Source: a virus (Duplodnaviria > Heunggongvirae > Uroviricota > Caudoviricetes). Taken from it: a stretch of DNA of 10,884 bases. Below, one piece after another: positions 1-10,758 of this stretch. Under the pieces are notes generated by a model that saw nothing but the letters and a program-made list of their open reading frames with translations, had not been told where the DNA came from and did no database searches. The stretch is from IMG/VR virus record IMGVR_UViG_2695420485_000001, one strand, 5' to 3'. Position numbers and translations under genes: made by a program. Within the stretch, counting starts at the first letter, position 1; every line of letters starts with the position of its first letter.

Positions 1-17
1 AGTTCACTTTGGTTATT

Positions 18-32
18 GCGCTTTGTCAGCGC
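18..32 (-). promoter_or_regulatory. nutL boxB-like hairpin (GCGCUGACAAAGCGC on the leftward pL transcript)
   Basis: Plus strand 18-32 gcgctttgtcagcgc; on the minus strand this gives a 5-bp stem GCGCU/AGCGC with loop GACAA, about 65-80 nt downstream of the pL start. Matches the P22-type boxB as I recall it, not the lambda GAAAA loop. No convincing boxA found by eye. Confidence 0.5.
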
Positions 33-100
33 CGTAGATTCATATTCGAATCGTTGTATATTCACCGCCCTGGTGAGTAGTGCGTCCTGCTGATGTGTTT

Positions 101-163
101 AGTATCACCGCCAGTGGTATTTATGTCAGCACCGCCAGAGATAATTTATCACCACAGATGGTT
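101..163 (-). promoter_or_regulatory. OL1-OL2-OL3 operators with leftward promoter pL
   Basis: Three 17-bp sites: tatcaccgccagtggta (103-119), cagcaccgccagagata (127-143), tatcaccacagatggtt (147-163). Minus strand reads CTGACA-17 nt-GATACT (-35 at 124-129, -10 at 101-106). Near-identical to lambda OL/pL from memory. Confidence 0.85.
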
Positions 164-310
164 ATCTGTATGTTTTTTATATAGATTTATTTTTTTGCAG
201 GGGTGTGTGGCTTGGGAGGTGATCGAGAGATCTGAATTGCGATGTTTAGTGAGTTGTATCTATTAATTTTCAAATAAATACAATTGGTTATGTGTTTTGG
301 GGCGAACGTG

Positions 311-345
311 AGGCAAAGAAAACCCGGCGCGGTGGCCGGGTTTAT
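311..345. terminator. Hairpin terminator closing the leftward immunity operon (tIMM position), possibly bidirectional
   Basis: Stem cccggc (323-328) / gccggg (335-340) with a 6-nt loop. On the minus strand it is followed by UUUUCUUUG, on the plus strand by tttatttatt. Lies immediately beyond the stop of the 216-aa minus-strand gene. Confidence 0.6.
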
Positions 346-996
346 TTATTGCTTAGGAGCTTGTTGTGATGACGATTGGTTAGTTGGAGCGCTCGTTAAT
401 GGTTGCTGTGTCGGTACCTGTATTATAATTGGAGCCGGGCTGGTTACTGATGGTGACTTGTCATTGCCGGAGATAATCCAACTTGAGGCTAACATCACGC
501 CAGACAGAATCACAGTAACTAAAGTCAAGCCAACGGCCATCGCCCACTGAGTCGTTGTAAGTCCCGTTTTCAAACCGCCGATTTCACCTTTAATTTCAGC
601 AATACCTCTCTCAATAGAAGAAAATTGCTGAGTATAATAGGTTTTAAAGTCAGCTGATTCGCGACGCATTTCCGCAGCAATAGACTCTACCTCTGATTTG
701 TTTTGTGAAAGCTTTGCGTCAAGTTCTTCTCTGGACATTCCGCTCACGCTTACCTCCAGGGTATCACTCTTCATCGCTACATCTTCCTTACTTGGGCGCA
801 AACCCGTTTCGTCCATGGCGTATGAAACTCTATTTGATACCTTAGCATCAATACCAATACTTTGGTACTGAGATGGATCCCCATAAGGAGAAACGGTTGT
901 CGCTGCTAGGGTTGCACTAACTATAATACTTGGAAGAACTGATGATGTTGTTCCTGAGGTAGGTTGAACTGAAGAAACTGGCTTCAGTCTTTCCAT
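346..996 (-). CDS. Hypothetical membrane-anchored protein, 216 aa: S/T-rich N-terminus, charged coiled-coil-like middle, one predicted TM helix (WAMAVGLTLVTVILSGVMLASSWII), S/P/T/Q-rich tail
   Basis: Long minus-strand ORF in the position of lambda rexB. Its ATG (996..994) overlaps the stop of the upstream 88-aa gene (ATGGAAAGACTGA), indicating translational coupling. AT-rich relative to cI. No family recognised. Confidence 0.75.
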   Translation of the reverse strand: MERLKPVSSVQPTSGTTSSVLPSIIVSATLAATTVSPYGDPSQYQSIGIDAKVSNRVSYAMDETGLRPSKEDVAMKSDTLEVSVSGMSREELDAKLSQNKSEVESIAAEMRRESADFKTYYTQQFSSIERGIAEIKGEIGGLKTGLTTTQWAMAVGLTLVTVILSGVMLASSWIISGNDKSPSVTSPAPIIIQVPTQQPLTSAPTNQSSSQQAPKQ

Positions 997-1250
997 AGCC
1001 CATTATCCCTGAGAGCTACCTGTAATGATTTTACTAATGCAACAGCTTGATCCGGGCTCATTGAGACTGACATGTTAGGGGTCAACTCAACTTTTACTTG
1101 GAAGCTATTCTTTCCTTGCTCATCAGACTGCATGTGATGCTCAAATTCATGGCGGTAAAAAGTAATGATTGTTTCAGCACGATCAGGCGTAATAAGAACT
1201 GATGTGGCGGTCATGTGCTGAGGTATGATTTTAATAGTGTTATCTGACAT
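984..1250 (-). CDS. Hypothetical soluble protein, 88 aa (MSDNTIKIIPQH...GLWKD), His/Glu-rich; the ORF extends to an ATG at 1391 (135 aa) but that start lacks a Shine-Dalgarno
   Basis: Minus-strand ORF. The internal ATG at 1250..1248 is preceded by AAAAAGGA 7-8 nt upstream; the 1391 ATG has no SD. Stop overlaps the start of the 216-aa gene. No homology recognised. Confidence 0.6.
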   Translation of the reverse strand: MSDNTIKIIPQHMTATSVLITPDRAETIITFYRHEFEHHMQSDEQGKNSFQVKVELTPNMSVSMSPDQAVALVKSLQVALRDNGLWKD

Positions 1251-1442
1251 AAGTATCCTTTTTGTTTCCTTAGTATTTTTTTGCATTGACATCAGAAATA
1301 GCGAATCCACAAGAGTATGAGTAAAGCTAATCAGTTTAGTGATACGGTGACTATTAAAGTGGTAAACCACATCAAAGCTCGCAGAGTGCATACCAGGCTG
1401 TCACACATGACAAAGTAACGAGGATGCCTGATCTCATAGCGC

Positions 1443-1598
1443 TCAAAGAGACATGCCGATAATGGCATTAACCACGCATGACGCCATAAACACGCCGCCA
1501 ACGATGAAGCTGGCTTGGTTCTTCCTGGTAGCGCCAAGAGTCAACAGAACCACTGAAAGGGCAAAAAAAGGTATCGCGATTATGCTGAACGTGTTCAT
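1443..1598 (-). CDS. Small hydrophobic protein, 51 aa, two predicted TM helices (MNTFSIIAIPFFALSVVLLTLGATRKNQASFIVGGVFMASCVVNAIIGMSL); not in the supplied ORF track
   Basis: Hand translation of the minus strand: ATG at 1598..1596 preceded by GAGGT with 5-nt spacing, TGA at 1445..1443. Sits between the cI stop and the 88-aa gene, same orientation as the leftward operon. Strongly hydrophobic composition. Confidence 0.45.
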   Translation of the reverse strand: MNTFSIIAIPFFALSVVLLTLGATRKNQASFIVGGVFMASCVVNAIIGMSL

Positions 1599-1675
1599 GT
1601 TGACCTCAACTTATTTCGATTCTCCATCACCCTTAATCCGCCGCCCCATGTGTTTGTTGTGATTCGTTGCTGGCC

Positions 1676-2392
<717 letters not shown>

Positions 2393-5735: not shown

Positions 5736-5765
5736 TTGACGCGATGATTTATTCGGGGCTATATT
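5736..5765 (+). promoter_or_regulatory. Strong sigma70-like promoter: TTGACG, 18-nt spacer, TATATT
   Basis: -35 at 5736-5741 and -10 at 5760-5765, immediately after the ninE stop, directed rightward toward the inserted module. Confidence 0.5.
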
Positions 5766-5771
5766 CCTCAC

Positions 5772-5848
5772 GCGCCAGCAAAATCTGGCGTCGGGATTAG
5801 CACCCCGGATATCGAAACGGTGCATAACCGCGCTGGCGGTTTTTTTAT
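5772..5848 (+). ncRNA. Candidate short terminated leader or sRNA (~75 nt) from the 5736-5765 promoter, ending at an intrinsic terminator
   Basis: Predicted start near 5772. Internal hairpins cgccag/ctggcg and cggg/cccg. Terminator stem aaccgc (5826-5831) / gcggtt (5836-5841) with loop gctg, followed by seven T. No ORF with a Shine-Dalgarno in the interval. Confidence 0.3.
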
Positions 5849-6010
5849 GCGCTAAGCACAGTCACATTCGCGATTTATGGCGGGCTGTGTGGGGGAGCCG
5901 AAAGGCTCGCCGGATGTTTCGACCGGTAGTGCTAACCCCGCACAGTTCGCCACCACGATGATTAGCACCTGACGGTGGCGAGGTAAAAATTATCGAAACG
6001 CGAGGTCATT

Positions 6011-6688
6011 ATGGCTGTTCAAATTTCTGTCGAAAACCTTTCCCCTGTTACCTATAACCAGATCCCCGTAATTACTACTGAACTGTTGGCTCACCTTTAC
6101 GGAACAAAAATCAAAAACATTTCTGATAACTTTCTGAACAACACGACGCGATTCATGCCCGGAAAGCATTACTTTAAAATTGAAAAAAACGAATTACGCG
6201 AGTTTAAGAACAGACCCGAAACAATCGGGTTAGTTGGTAAAAATGCCCGCGCCCTCATCCTCTGGACAGAACGCGGCGCAGCCCGTCACGCAAAAATGCT
6301 CGAAACCGATCAGGCGTGGGAAGTGTTCGAAAAACTGGAAGACTGCTATTTCAGCCAGTGCGAGAAAAATACTGGCAAACAAGAGAAGAAGCCCAACGGG
6401 CTTTCCGCAAAAGAAACAGACAGCCTTGTATGGCTGTGGGATTATGCCAACCGCTCACAGGCATTGTTCCGTGAGTTGTATCCCGCATTAAAACTGATTC
6501 AGTCTGGCTATTCCGGCATATGCTACGACTACGGTCATGAGTTCTCGTATGTTATTGGAATGGCGAGAGACGTTTTAATTAATCACACACGAGATGTTGA
6601 TATCAATGAGCCAGACGGACCAACGAACCTTCTGGCATGGGAAAGGCTTAAGAACAAAGAGTTGCCGCCTTCACTGCATCGCTACTGA
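6011..6688 (+). CDS. ORF6N (KilA-N-related) domain protein, 225 aa, with an unrecognised C-terminal domain
   Basis: N-terminal ~100 aa fit the ORF6N pattern ([33 protein letters not shown]...[34 protein letters not shown]). GAGGT Shine-Dalgarno 6 nt before the ATG. Followed by its own terminator. Confidence 0.7.
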
Positions 6689-6703
6689 CAATTGACAACT
6701 TAA

Positions 6704-6731
6704 CAAACCCAGCTTCGGCTGGGTTTTTTAT
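6704..6731 (+). terminator. Rho-independent terminator after the ORF6N gene
   Basis: aacccagc ttcg gctgggtt: 8-bp stem, tetraloop, then TTTTTTATT. Confidence 0.75.
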
Positions 6732-6756
6732 TGCTGAATTTTCAATGTGAGAGGAC

Positions 6757-7485
6757 ATGACAATGAATGAGCTGATAAATAGCAATGCCATCAAAATGAC
6801 AAGCATTGAAATCGCTGAGTTGGTGGGAAGTCGTCATGACAAGGTGAAACAATCCATTGAACGACTGGCTGTTCGAGGTGTGATCCGAAATCCCCCAATG
6901 GTGGTTTTCGAAAAAATCAATAACTTAGGATTACTTCGTGGCGTAGAGGCTTACGTTTTTGAGGGCGAACAAGGTAAGCGCGACAGCATTATTGTCGTTG
7001 CCCAGTTGTCGCCGGAATTCACCGCTCGCCTTGTTGACCGCTGGCGAGAACTCGAAGGGGCAACCGCGAAAATACCACAAACCTTTTCTGAGGCATTGCG
7101 CCTTGCGGCCGACCTTGAAGACCAGAAGGCTGAACTGGAGAAACAGCTTGCTCTCGCAGCACCTAAAGTTGAGTTTGCCGATCGAGTTGGCGAGGCCAGC
7201 GGAATTTTGATTGGAAACTTTGCAAAGGTTGTTGGTATTGGTCCAAACAAACTGTTTGCGTGGATGCGCGATCACAAAATCCTTATTGCTTCAGGTGCCC
7301 GGCGCAATGTGCCAATGCAGGAATATATGGATCGCGGCTATTTCACAGTGAAAGAAACAGCGGTCAATACAAATCACGGAATACAGATATCGTTCACCAC
7401 AAAAATCACCGGGCGTGGTCAACAGTGGCTGACAAGAAAGCTGCTAGATAACGGAATGCTTAAAGTAACAGGGGAGGCTGCTTAA
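6757..7485 (+). CDS. Rha-family phage regulatory protein with a KilA-C/ANT-like C-terminal domain (antirepressor or Roi-like), 242 aa
   Basis: N-terminus [30 protein letters not shown] fits the Rha winged-helix pattern; C-terminus [48 protein letters not shown] fits the ANT/KilA-C pattern. GAGAGGA Shine-Dalgarno upstream. Stop overlaps the ninG start (TAATG). Confidence 0.7.
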
Positions 7486-8090: not shown

Positions 8091-8758
8091 ATATCTACGA
8101 AAGAATTGATGGCAGCAAATACCGAAATATTTGGGTAGTTGGCGATCTGCACGGATGCTACACGAACCTGATGAAAAAACTGGAGACGATAGGATTCGAC
8201 ACCAAAAAAGACCTGCTTATCTCGGTGGGCGATTTGGTTGATCGCGGTACAGAGAACGTAGAATGCCTGGAATTAATCACATTCCCCTGGTTCAGAGCTG
8301 TACGTGGAAACCATGAGCAAATGATGATTGATGGCTTATCAGAGCGTGGAAACGTCAATCACTGGATGCTTAATGGCGGTGGCTGGTTCTTTAATCTCGA
8401 TTACGACAAAGAAATTCTGGCTAAAGCTCTTGCCCATAAAGCAGATGAACTTCCGTTAATCATCGAACTGGTGAGCAAAGATAAAAAATATGTCATCTGC
8501 CACGCCGATTATCCTTGTGACGAATACGAGTTTGGAAAGCCAGTTGATCATCAGCAGGTAATCTGGAACCGAGAACGAATCAGCAACTCACAAGACGGGA
8601 TCGTGAAAGAAATTAAAGGCGCGGACACGTTCATCTTTGGTCATACGCCAGCAGTGAAACCGCTCAAATTTGCCAACCAGATGTATATCGATACCGGCGC
8701 AGTGTTCTGCGGAAAGCTCACATTGATTCAGGTACAGGGAGAAGGCGCGTGGGCATAA
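8087..8758 (+). CDS. ninI: NinI Ser/Thr protein phosphatase (lambda PPase), 223 aa
   Basis: Calcineurin-like metallophosphatase motifs GDLHG, GDLVDRG, GNHE; near-identical to lambda phosphatase as recalled. ATGA overlap with the ninG stop. Confidence 0.93.
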
Positions 8759-9237
8759 GAGAACTAAACCTCACCAAAGAACAGCATGAGTGGCTGAATG
8801 GCTGGCTTGAACTGTGGGGCGCATGGGTTTATTCAGGTCGTCTGGAAAAGCGCATGAGCAGCGTAATAGCGAAGTTCATGGAGAGCGTAGAGCCGGGAAG
8901 AGTTATGACAAGACCAATGTGCAATGATGATGATGGAATGTTGATTTCTCAGGTCGTCGATTCCGTCATGTACATTGACAAGAAAGCCTTTGGCATCCTC
9001 CTCAGCTACTACGCTCATGGTTCTTCCAGGCACGCCATTGCATCTTACTATCATCGCGTCGCAAGACCTCGCAAGATGTTATGCCGGGGCGGCGGGCGCA
9101 TTCAAAAACCATCGCTCGCAACCTGTCGACGGGAAGTTGACGAAATCCTTAATGCCTCGTTGTTTATGATTTACCCGGTTCTGGATAGTGCGTTTAAAAA
9201 CCGGAAACGTGTAGAGAAAATTAAACATGTAGCATAG
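8749..9237 (+). CDS. Q: Late-gene antiterminator Q of the non-lambda (phage 82/21, DLP12 QuuD-like) family, 162 aa
   Basis: Occupies the Q slot between ninI and the PR'/tRNA region. Shares WGAW and P-x-C-x-DDD-x-M-I motifs with DLP12 QuuD as recalled; not similar to lambda Q. Likely GTG start at 8749 preceded by GGAGAAGG. Confidence 0.65.
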
Positions 9238-9327: not shown

Positions 9328-9402
9328 GGGTCAGTCGTATAAAGGTCATTACGGAAGGCTGTTAACCTTCTTATCGTGGTTCGAGTCCACGCTGTCCCGC
9401 CA
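9328..9402 (+). tRNA. tRNA-like gene, 75 nt, anticodon loop CUGUUAA (GUU, Asn-type); one U-U mismatch in the acceptor stem
   Basis: Manual cloverleaf: acceptor gggtcag/ctgtccc (6 of 7 paired), D-arm gtat-aaaggtca-ttac, anticodon stem gaagg/ccttc, T-arm cgtgg-ttcgagt-ccacg, discriminator G, encoded CCA. Confidence 0.55.
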
Positions 9403-9407
9403 AACAT

Positions 9408-9483
9408 GCTGGTTTAGCTCCAATGGTAGAGCAACTGACTTGTAATCATCAGGTCGCCAGTTCGATTCCGGTAGCCGGCACCA
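9408..9483 (+). tRNA. tRNA-Thr-like gene, 76 nt, anticodon UGU (loop CUUGUAA); weakened anticodon stem and one T-stem mismatch
   Basis: Resembles E. coli tRNA-Thr(UGU) as recalled (GAGCAACTGACTTGTAATCA...AGGTC...CCAGTTCGATTCCGGTAG...CACCA). Acceptor gctggtt/agccggc includes two G-U pairs. Only 3 of 5 anticodon-stem pairs form (tcatc instead of tcagt). Confidence 0.6.
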
Positions 9484-9486
9484 TAT

Positions 9487-9561
9487 GCGGGTACCGTATA
9501 ATGGCTATTACCTCAGCCTTCCAGTCTGATGATGCGGGTTCGATTCCCGCTACCCGCTCCA
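9487..9561 (+). tRNA. tRNA-like gene, 75 nt, anticodon loop CUUCCAG (UCC, Gly-type by manual fold); C at position 8 and a C-U mismatch closing the anticodon stem
   Basis: Perfect 7-bp acceptor gcgggta/tacccgc, D-arm gtat-aatggcta-ttac (same architecture as the first tRNA-like gene), T-arm gcggg-ttcgatt-cccgc, encoded CCA. Confidence 0.5.
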
Positions 9562-9649: not shown

Positions 9650-9874
9650 GTGAAAAAGCTGATGGTGACGATTGGTCCGTTCGAAACAGAAGTTAGTTTT
9701 CGTGTCGTTCAGGGGGAGAGTGTACTTGTTGAAGATGTATTTCATGGAAAATCAACAGGTCCTTATGTAAAAGAATATTTTGTCGACGCCACGGATGAAA
9801 ATATTGAGGTGGTGTACGATTCCGTCAATCACCCTAATTTGATCATTAAGGCAAAATTGAAACCACTTTATTGA
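9650..9874 (+). CDS. Hypothetical small protein, 74 aa
   Basis: AGGAGG at 9640-9645, GTG start at 9650 with short 4-nt spacing; alternative ATG at 9662 is far from the SD. No family recognised. Located between the tRNA cluster and the downstream late region. Confidence 0.5.
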   Translation: MKKLMVTIGPFETEVSFRVVQGESVLVEDVFHGKSTGPYVKEYFVDATDENIEVVYDSVNHPNLIIKAKLKPLY

Positions 9875-9926: not shown

Positions 9927-10136
9927 ATGTTTGTTGCTGAAGGGGTAATGGAAGATAAGGACAACAAAGGATGTGTTAAAGGTTGGGCTGTGGTAAGAAA
10001 CTCGCCATGGCATCTTGTTGGGGTTTTTGCGACAGAGGAAGACGCGGAAATGGAAGCAAGAAAGACGGGAGATGAGTACGAGGTTCACTATGGCTCGCAT
10101 CGAACAGGAAGTGATGATTTTGTCTGGGGGGAGTAA
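9927..10136 (+). CDS. Hypothetical small acidic protein, 69 aa
   Basis: Strong AAGGAG Shine-Dalgarno 7 nt before the ATG at 9927. Followed by a terminator. No family recognised. Confidence 0.6.
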   Translation: MFVAEGVMEDKDNKGCVKGWAVVRNSPWHLVGVFATEEDAEMEARKTGDEYEVHYGSHRTGSDDFVWGE

Positions 10137-10195: not shown

Positions 10196-10326
10196 TATCC
10201 GCGCCACGCCCGGCGCATATCAACCACAGAGCCTTTCGGGGGTGAGCTTACGGAGTGGTCAGTGTGACTTTCTCTGTGGGCAGATCGCTCCCGGGCGTTG
10301 GCTCACCCACCCAAAGGAACGTCACG

Positions 10327-10758
10327 ATGTTTGGTATTTTTGGTAAAAAAGCCCGCCGAGCGGCAGTGGAAATTAAAAAGTTTGAGAAACGTGATCTGGC
10401 ACAGGCGGTTATTAATGCTGCCTATCTGGTGGCCTATGCAGATGGTGAATGTGAGGCTTCAGAGAAAGCGAAGATCGAGCAGGTCTTGCGTAACCAGCCT
10501 GCGTTGTCCGCGTTTACGTCAGAAATTAATGCGATTAGCGCAACCATTATCGGTCAGCTGGATACGAACTTTAAAACTGGTCGTCGAGCGGCATTGCGTG
10601 AAATTGAAGATGTGAAACACGATACGCGTGAAGCGGAAGATGTGCTGGATGTGGCGGTGGCCATTGCGGAGGCAGACGGCGAAATTGAGCCGGAAGAGCG
10701 CAAGGTGCTGGAAGAGATTGCCGGTGTTCTGGGTCTTCGTCTGGAGAATCACCTGTGA
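10327..10758 (+). CDS. TerB-like (tellurite-resistance TerB family) domain protein, 143 aa
   Basis: From the ATG at 10327 (MFGIFGKKARRAAVEIKK...); the track ORF begins at an upstream alternative start. Two VA-x-ADG-E acidic repeats (LVAYADGECEASEKAKIE and VAIAEADGEIEPEERKVLEEIAGVLG) typical of TerB. Confidence 0.65.
   Translation: MFGIFGKKARRAAVEIKKFEKRDLAQAVINAAYLVAYADGECEASEKAKIEQVLRNQPALSAFTSEINAISATIIGQLDTNFKTGRRAALREIEDVKHDTREAEDVLDVAVAIAEADGEIEPEERKVLEEIAGVLGLRLENHL

Follow-up and report, generated by a model that had tools for sequence, protein, structure and literature searches.

A modular gp49–gp48 gene pair and a 51-codon gene in the rexAB slot of an HK97-type lambdoid immunity region

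The slot behind cI and its borders

Directly behind the lambda-type cI repressor gene of a tailed phage (Caudoviricetes; IMG/VR virus record IMGVR_UViG_2695420485_000001), at the place where phage lambda carries rexA and rexB, lie three small genes that are the subject of this work. The stretch of this record that we analysed, 10,884 nucleotides (nt) long and called the window below, had been described earlier from its letters alone, and that sequence-only reading placed three co-oriented open reading frames (ORFs) in the slot; all three are there, on the minus strand, at 1443–1598, 984–1250 and 346–996, with products of 51, 88 and 216 residues. None of these proteins has a known function, which bears out the description of them as unrecognised, yet the two larger ones are already in the databases as gp48 (216 residues) and gp49 (88 residues) of phage HK97 (NP_037733, NP_037734), listed in public records as hypothetical. 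Window positions 1–1700 are 99.5% identical in nt sequence to HK97 26566–28263, the part of that genome that carries Gp48, Gp49 and cI, and the neighbouring features (cI, OL/pL) are alike. Nothing differs between the two phages in gp48 and gp49 themselves; their replication genes do differ, the O and P ORFs of the window being lambda-like and those of HK97 a P22 gp18-like O and a DnaB-like P. The window is a segment of a mosaic lambdoid prophage. Scans of the three proteins against Pfam, NCBIfam, PADLOC and PHROGs returned only PHROGs of unknown function (5820 for gp48, E value 9.6e-69; 26809 for gp49, E value 2.7e-62), and a PDB sequence search with gp48- and gp49-family profiles returned nothing meaningful.

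The placement of these genes in a rexAB slot behind a lambda-type cI, ending at the lambda terminator tIMM, is confirmed by comparison with lambda. Homology to lambda spans window positions 62–342, stops there and restarts at 1680, so that 343–1679 replaces rexA–rexB precisely, from the cI stop codon (1676–1678) to the retained tIMM. The intrinsic terminator of tIMM type that closes the slot (312–343, minus strand) consists of a 9-bp GC-rich stem (hairpin 320–343; −15.4 kcal/mol, z score −2.3) followed by UUUUCUUU, and sits in the segment that the window has in common with lambda up to the rexB stop. On the other side, cI (1676–2389, minus strand; 237 residues, annotated as cI or LexA-family in HK97 and Escherichia coli records) and cro (2490–2690) are those of lambda, with 98% identity in nt sequence over positions 1680–2549. 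Between these two genes, and within the same lambda-identical block, lies the OR/PRM/PR control region (2390–2489), annotated in HK97 as the OR operator, where a promoter scan places a PR-like promoter at 2437–2465.

Positions 343–1679 are accessory cargo of the lambdoid immunity-region slot, in its HK97 version. Genes between the repressor and the next terminator vary among phages with common flanks, and the use of this slot as a cargo site, which the sequence-only reading had assumed, is both documented in the literature (PMC7067206, PMC3564112) and visible as a hotspot in E. coli genomes. The survey of genes downstream of cI that it had proposed found a full-length lambda-type cI in 618 complete E. 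coli genomes, followed by rexAB in 99 and by the HK97-type cassette in 52. At least six different cargos occupy the place after this cI; those sampled include a hypothetical gene paired with a DUF1828 gene, a lone gene for a 127-residue protein, a KilA-N pair, and rexA with an ExbB-like gene. An uncharacterised example of the first kind is found in prophage L070 of E. coli O104:H4 (1644–2950), where the lambda-type cI is followed by two overlapping genes, one for a 180-residue hypothetical protein and one for a DUF1828 protein. The distal edge of the slot is conserved well beyond these genomes. The tIMM-type hairpin (window 319–342) recurs with 88–96% identity at the distal end of the slot in loci L007 (5903–5926), L009 (5612–5635), L019 (5318–5352), L020, L045 (4600–4643), L048 (4600–4622) and L050 (4597–4630), which carry unrelated repressors and unrelated cargo and include Klebsiella loci; it looks like a shared boundary, and possibly a recombination anchor for cargo exchange.

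cI, which borders the slot upstream, would open the PRM transcript presumed for lysogens, and by analogy with lambda and with published work on the slot (PMC7067206, PMC3564112) this transcript would run on through the slot genes and end at hairpin 320–343. Co-transcription of accessory cargo with the repressor is described for Rex, 933W Stk, 434 Hex and BstA (PMC3564112; PMC7067206). For the window, our scan predicts no strong terminator between cI and position 343; a literature search returned no transcriptome of an HK97 lysogen. The 192-nt spacer between the 51-codon gene and gp49 (1251–1442, minus strand; 39.6% GC) holds the perfect palindrome TGTCAtgtgTGACA at 1396–1409 (minus strand), a possible binding site for a protein or a possible small hairpin. 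The promoter and terminator scan of this area gave only a weak 5-bp hairpin (1453–1468), inside the end of the 51-codon gene, and upstream of gp49 a simple scan detected no promoter on the minus strand. The predicted RNA folding of the spacer is no better than that of shuffled sequence (z score +0.85), and window positions 1–1750 match no Rfam family.

Separate histories of the slot genes

The cI-proximal gene (1443–1598, minus strand) encodes a small membrane protein of 51 residues with two transmembrane (TM) helices by hydropathy, at residues 4–22 and 31–49, joined by a short TRKNQ loop, in agreement with its earlier description as a two-helix peptide. A GAGG ribosome-binding site stands 5 nt upstream of the gene, which is unannotated in HK97, in HK225 and in the NCBI E. 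coli records. Judging from its substitution pattern, it is a real gene under purifying selection: 35 clusters of homologues at 67–98% identity are nearly all exactly 51 residues long, and the ratio of nonsynonymous to synonymous substitution rates (dN/dS) is about 0.06–0.2 in comparisons with six diverged homologues. Synonymous sites are close to saturation in these comparisons, and one further comparison (to L015) is disregarded because the sequences were mis-registered. The HK225 record has ORFs on the opposite strand here instead; we rejected these plus-strand candidates because the selection pattern fits the minus-strand frame.

The gene and its immediate flanks behave as a unit of their own. 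A module of 219 bp (1431–1649, minus strand), comprising the ORF with 51 nt upstream and 12 nt downstream, is 92% identical in loci L019 and L020, where the gene (90% protein identity) directly follows a different, HTH_3 repressor of YdaS/YdaT type and is itself followed by an unrelated gene for a 331-residue protein; DNA similarity between the window and this locus is limited to the module and the terminator. More diverged homologues, from the Enterobacteriaceae Atlantibacter, Lelliottia, Klebsiella, Kosakonia and Raoultella, stand alone in ordinary, non-phage surroundings on the chromosome, close to pmrD, to a dinI-family gene, or to RIO1 and yceI, and in no case with gp48 or gp49. Conversely, gp49/gp48-like pairs in Klebsiella and Kosakonia directly follow repressors and have no 51-codon gene.

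Base composition separates the genes in the same way. The sequence-only reading had called the block visibly more AT-rich than cI and had taken this as a sign of horizontal acquisition; over the cassette as a whole the difference is weak (43.6% GC against 45.5% for cI), and at third codon positions (GC3) it holds for gp48 (0.355) and gp49 (0.393) relative to cI (0.437) and is reversed for the 51-codon gene (0.596). Taken together, these sequence comparisons indicate that the slot holds two independently acquired modules, the 51-codon gene and the gp49–gp48 pair, and the proposal of a single three-gene cassette does not survive them, the 51-codon gene having its own distribution, composition and partners.

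Could the three ORFs nevertheless form one co-evolved three-gene system? They are co-oriented within one promoter-to-terminator unit, and they are always together, in copies at least 99% identical, in HK97, in Lambdavirus PDP110P1, in HK225, where the repressor ahead of them is a different one, and in the prophages of 52 among 5,426 complete E. coli genomes. Because all of these copies are so nearly identical, however, their co-occurrence counts as a single evolutionary instance; among diverged relatives the two parts stand apart in every case, the GC3 of the 51-codon gene (0.596) lies far from the range of the pair (0.355–0.393), and its module has sharp borders of its own. We therefore regard a joint three-gene system as highly improbable. 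The HK225 match, which reaches window position 1700, includes 25 nt of the 3′ end of a lambda-type cI that lie outside HK225's own cI gene.

The gp49–gp48 pair and its family

gp49 (984–1250, minus strand; PHROG 26809), the small partner in the pair, is an acidic soluble protein of 88 residues (8 Lys and Arg against 11 Asp and Glu) with no TM segment by hydropathy and no match to a DNA-binding domain. The NCBI pipeline and the HK225 record give it 102 residues. We rejected this longer start, which has no ribosome-binding site, and prefer the shorter one because homologues at 52–66% identity are all 88 residues long and because AAGGA stands 5 nt before the ATG at 1250. The start codon of gp48 precedes the stop codon of gp49 by 13 nt, and this overlap (ATGGAAAGACTGA), which the sequence-only reading had pointed out as translational coupling of the pair, is kept in relatives at 33–66% protein identity. 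For both genes, the proportion of nonsynonymous differences (pN) is below that of synonymous differences (pS) in every comparison.

gp48 (346–996, minus strand; PHROG 5820), the Gp48 protein of HK97, is a 216-residue protein predicted to reside in the inner membrane, with a single TM segment close to its C-terminus. Residues 1–87 (736–996) make up a variable N-terminal region that is unconserved in family alignments and predicted to be disordered, with a predicted local distance difference test score (pLDDT) below 50. They are followed by a conserved coiled-coil core at residues 88–150 (547–735; pLDDT 85–90), which contains the motif SREELDAKLxQNKxEVxxxAAEMRRE, then GxIxGLK-type repeats, and in which E91, A94, L96, E102 and G141 are invariant or near-invariant columns. 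The TM helix at residues 152–175 (472–543), with a Kyte–Doolittle peak of 2.25 at 152–170, leads into a Pro/Gln/Ser-rich tail at residues 176–216 (349–471) that contains the motif PAPIIIQVP and ends in APKQ. An AlphaFold2 model of gp48 has a confident helix at 89–142 (pLDDT 85–90) and a TM helix at 148–177, with the remainder below 50. The TM and structure predictions that the sequence-only reading had suggested thus agree with its description of a soluble protein next to a coiled-coil protein with one TM segment. From the lack of a signal peptide and the position of the TM segment near the C-terminus we infer that the N-terminal ~150 residues of gp48 are cytoplasmic and that the tail is periplasmic; such a tail, Pro-rich, variable in the length of its (AP)n run and usually with a Lys near its end, recalls periplasmic spacer or tether proteins.

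The pair is not an orphan of HK97 but one case of a two-gene family of ~200 clusters that is modular and tied to lysogeny control. A word-based search recovered 11 clusters of gp48-like proteins and a profile search 203 at E ≤ 0.001 (107 at E ≤ 1e-10), with named members in Escherichia, Citrobacter, Klebsiella, Kosakonia, Yersinia, Xenorhabdus, Morganella and the betaproteobacterium Aquitalea. The first ~40–100 residues are the variable part; the conserved part, a coiled coil, starts SREELDAKLxQNKAEVxAVAAEMRREMAxFR and goes on with GxIxGLK or SLNAKIDGI-type repeats, the number of which varies. All 77 members examined have a single TM segment, followed by a tail of 23–66 residues that is 19% Pro and 15.5% Gln, has a Lys or Arg within its last three residues in 63 of the 77, and repeatedly includes a short hydrophobic strand between prolines (PIIIQVP, PTVIYVQQP). 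The (AP)n runs differ in length between near-identical proteins: in loci L052, L054, L055 and L057 the number of Ala-Pro repeats in the tail (~8 to 11) is the sole difference, which suggests slippage-driven changes in the length of a periplasmic spacer.

Each of the 25 diverged viral loci carries a small ORF immediately 5′ of its gp48-like gene, at a spacing of −23 to +39 nt. The soluble-plus-membrane layout that had been noticed in the last two genes is both real and conserved. The small partners themselves fall into several classes: gp49-like proteins of 87–99 residues (PHROG 26809), other beta-rich proteins of 84–108 residues (PHROG 4231 for one subgroup), proteins of 111–131 residues with a double Cys-x-x-Cys motif (PHROG 4293), and others of 143–165 residues (PHROGs 5893 and 5881). 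No function is known for any of these PHROGs, and the alternative classes match no known domain, only PHROGs 4293, 4231, 5893 and 5881. A profile comparison of gp49-like with other beta-rich partners is colinear, with a common ITF-RH motif, but weak (probability 31%, P 5e-4), and homology among the classes is for that reason unproven.

The exchange of partners follows the variable region of gp48. Among 18 distinct pairs, which give 153 locus comparisons, the gp48 core is homologous in all 153 and the N-terminal region detectably so in 13; the partner is homologous in all of these 13, and in no case does a similar gp48 N-terminus occur with a different partner. In several pairs of loci, cores that are 60–87% identical carry unrelated partners and unrelated N-termini (for example L052 and L059, with cores 87% identical), which places the exchange junction inside the gp48 gene, at the border between N-terminal region and core. 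These sequence relationships fit a single functional unit made up of the partner and the gp48 N-terminus.

The genomic surroundings link the pairs to lysogeny control. Of 14 distinct proteins encoded next upstream of the pair in lambdoid loci, 10 are repressors of helix-turn-helix, S24 or CI type, and the Yersinia, Kosakonia and Klebsiella loci have a repressor in the same position; at least four unrelated repressor types precede gp49/gp48-like pairs. In myovirus-type prophages of the Xenorhabdus kind the pair adjoins genes for an Arc/Mnt-like repressor and Ant. Two Yersinia-type loci (L004, 3746–4691; L061, 2517–2999) have one or two extra paralogues between repressor and pair, coding for proteins of 132–160 residues with an N-terminal TM segment (PHROG 34525, unknown function); the slot can hence hold three or four accessory genes.

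Candidate functions

We propose, with a probability of roughly 0.45, that gp49 and gp48 form a two-component inner-membrane system with a phage-exclusion role of some type. The proposal draws on position, architecture and precedent. Accessory genes directly downstream of the repressor and co-transcribed with it include 933W Stk, 434 Hex and BTP1 BstA, which have exclusion or abortive-infection roles (PMC3564112; PMC7067206); their products are unrelated proteins, Stk being a kinase, Hex small and cytoplasmic, and BstA associated with DNA, and no coiled-coil membrane protein with a small partner is among them. The likeness to lambda RexA/RexB, a system whose hallmark is that T4 rII mutants are excluded and membrane potential is lost upon infection, is one of position and architecture: the slot from the cI stop to tIMM is identical, the genes are co-oriented with cI, and a soluble and a membrane protein are encoded with the soluble one first. 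The proteins are nonetheless different, RexA having 279 residues against 88 in gp49, and RexB 144 residues with several TM segments against the one TM segment that follows a long coiled coil in gp48; the gene overlap, moreover, is seen only between gp49 and gp48. The "RexA/RexB logic" of the sequence-only reading therefore stands as to slot and soluble/membrane layout and fails as to sequence and profile similarity, and is an analogy only.

How such a system would work can be outlined. gp49 may bind the variable N-terminal region of gp48, so that together they would make an exchangeable specificity or control unit, and the conserved coiled coil would oligomerise the membrane-anchored part, which would act at the envelope. 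A lysogen could then be protected from other phages either by a triggered membrane lesion, that is, abortive infection as proposed for Rex, or by a block to genome entry at the inner membrane, that is, superinfection exclusion; the conserved periplasmic motif of gp48 would tip the balance slightly towards action on the envelope side. A bolder extension, which we hold to be doubtful, is that gp49–gp48 founds an unrecognised class of repressor-linked prophage anti-phage systems across Enterobacterales and beyond, in which exchangeable sensor units (a small partner from at least five unrelated families and the matching N-terminus) would be joined to a conserved tail-anchored effector (coiled coil, TM segment and a Pro/Gln tail in the periplasm), the 51-residue hairpin protein being a second, independent exclusion factor.

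Several observations weigh against a role in exclusion. PADLOC-DB v2 (5,027 models) gives no match for the three window proteins, and across 52 gp48-family members PADLOC finds only scattered weak coiled-coil matches (LmuB, JetC, ZorA). Nor do the proteins show similarity to the Rex proteins: BLASTP gives no alignment of gp49 with RexA and an E value of 0.68 for gp48 with RexB, and hhalign a probability of 0.4%. The fold of gp49 has no assignment, and the model of gp48 is poor outside its helix (pLDDT 52). The conserved motif in the gp48 tail, which is predicted to be periplasmic, is not obviously required for an abortive mechanism of pore type. No protein that fuses a partner to a gp48-like protein was found, and since the partner gene adjoins the N-terminal codons of gp48, their joint replacement may reflect linkage alone. 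The 192-nt spacer yielded no resolved promoter or terminator, which makes the structure of the transcript uncertain, and we found no paper that addresses these genes or a phenotype that they confer on HK97 lysogens.

The nearest Pfam family, CCDC90-like (PF07798, formerly DUF1640), shares with gp48 a coiled coil followed by a C-terminal TM helix, and matches it at 12.6 bits (E 0.12), below the gathering threshold of 33.5 bits; weak matches, the best with E 2.4e-7, occur in 15 of the 52 gp48-family members and fall on the C-terminal part of the model. Pfam matches in these 52 are to generic coiled-coil families only (Baculo_PEP_C, CCDC90-like and NPV_P10), and since Baculo_PEP_C and NPV_P10 match equally often, the CCDC90-like signal is mostly that of a generic coiled coil. 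As the family has no known bacterial function, it offers no functional help for gp48.

Our best guess for the 51-residue protein, made with low confidence, is that it serves as a small modulator at the membrane or as an exclusion factor; the analogy is with HK97 gp15, a YebO-like moron product that is small, has bacterial homologues and mediates superinfection exclusion (PMC6379469). Both are small proteins borne by the same phage with homologues on bacterial chromosomes. The 51-residue protein differs in having no Pfam match to YebO at E ≤ 1, only sub-threshold matches in its TM region. It differs also in that its gene lies in the immunity region, the HK97 record having no gene 15 in the 24–31 kb stretch examined; gp15 is presumably located among the tail genes.

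Other roles for these genes deserve to be weighed against phage exclusion. They might be lysogenic-conversion factors, comparable to lambda bor and lom, that alter the envelope or the physiology of the host (stress tolerance, its surface, or a TonB- or peptidoglycan-linked process) with no direct part in conflicts between phages. Both modules do encode inner-membrane proteins, the relatives of the 51-codon gene are ordinary chromosomal genes, the gp48 tail recalls periplasmic spacers and tethers, and the family spans gut, plant-associated and insect-pathogen genera; yet family scans bring up no similarity to known conversion or virulence factors, and exchangeable units of partner and N-terminus look more like the specificity modules of conflict systems than like a housekeeping function of the envelope. 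We consider this reading unlikely. We think it rather less likely again that gp48 is a membrane toxin and gp49 its neutraliser, a type II-like toxin–antitoxin or addiction pair that would mainly stabilise the prophage or kill cells that lose expression of the repressor operon, rather than sense other phages. The conserved 13-nt overlap of a small upstream gene with the gene for a membrane protein would suit such a pair, partner and gp48 N-terminus change jointly as cognate proteins would, and a coiled coil with a single TM segment could oligomerise into a membrane lesion. Against it, no toxin or antitoxin family is matched in Pfam, NCBIfam or PADLOC, and the conserved periplasmic and cytoplasmic motifs of gp48 suggest specific binding partners, not a generic membrane poison. 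This reading also overlaps with a role in phage exclusion, as many toxin–antitoxin pairs act in abortive infection too.

The pair might instead act on the prophage's own lysis–lysogeny switch, or on its induction, and not on other phages. Precedents have been reported in the biasing of the lambda switch by RexA and in the shielding of the repressor by 434 Hex (PMC3564112 and the RexA papers), and pairs lie directly downstream of at least four unrelated repressor types and, in myovirus-type prophages, beside Arc/Mnt-Ant immunity genes. The variety of the repressors that the pair accompanies, however, argues against a specific interaction with a repressor, because the module works with unrelated ones; a membrane anchor and a conserved periplasmic tail would be unexpected in a regulator of a cytoplasmic DNA switch, and gp49 is acidic and has no DNA-binding domain match. 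We judge a function in the switch to be very unlikely and retain, as the preferred reading, a phage-exclusion role for gp49–gp48.

The remainder of the window has further accessory features. The nin region (5759–7485) contains an antisense-RNA-controlled antirepressor module, in which Rfam detects c4-a1b1 targets at 5759–5811, isrK at 5772–5846 and a C4 antisense RNA at 5873–5957, and which includes ORFs of antirepressor type with ORF6N and P22_AR_C domains (6011–6688) and with Rha and ANT/KilAC domains (6757–7485); these C4-type RNAs and antirepressor ORFs give the prophage a second immunity layer, of P1/P7 type, besides lambda cI. Downstream of the Q antiterminator gene (8749–9237) lies a tRNA cluster (9328–9561), in which ARAGORN finds tRNA-Asn(GTT) at 9328–9402 and tRNA-Gly(TCC) at 9487–9561. 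A third match, at 9408–9480, is detected by Rfam and not by ARAGORN, and may thus be degenerate. Beyond the tRNAs, in the leader region of the late operon, which is a typical moron position, a 167-residue ORF at 10255–10758 has a TerB domain of tellurite-resistance type; the small ORFs that precede it, at 9650–9874 and 9927–10136, have no Pfam match.

The repressor-proximal slot of lambdoid phages has repeatedly yielded exclusion systems (Rex, Stk, Hex and BstA), yet in HK97, a model phage in heavy use, the genes that fill it are uncharacterised and one of them is unannotated. What is new here is a repressor-operon cargo of proteins unrelated to those systems and of modular design. The terminator conserved at the edge of the slot is an illustration of how phages whose repressors are unrelated exchange cargo, and the gp49–gp48 family, missing from current defence catalogues, is a concrete and cheap target. 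Should gp49–gp48 prove to be a defence system, its exchangeable units of partner and N-terminus would provide a natural system for studying how specificity evolves.

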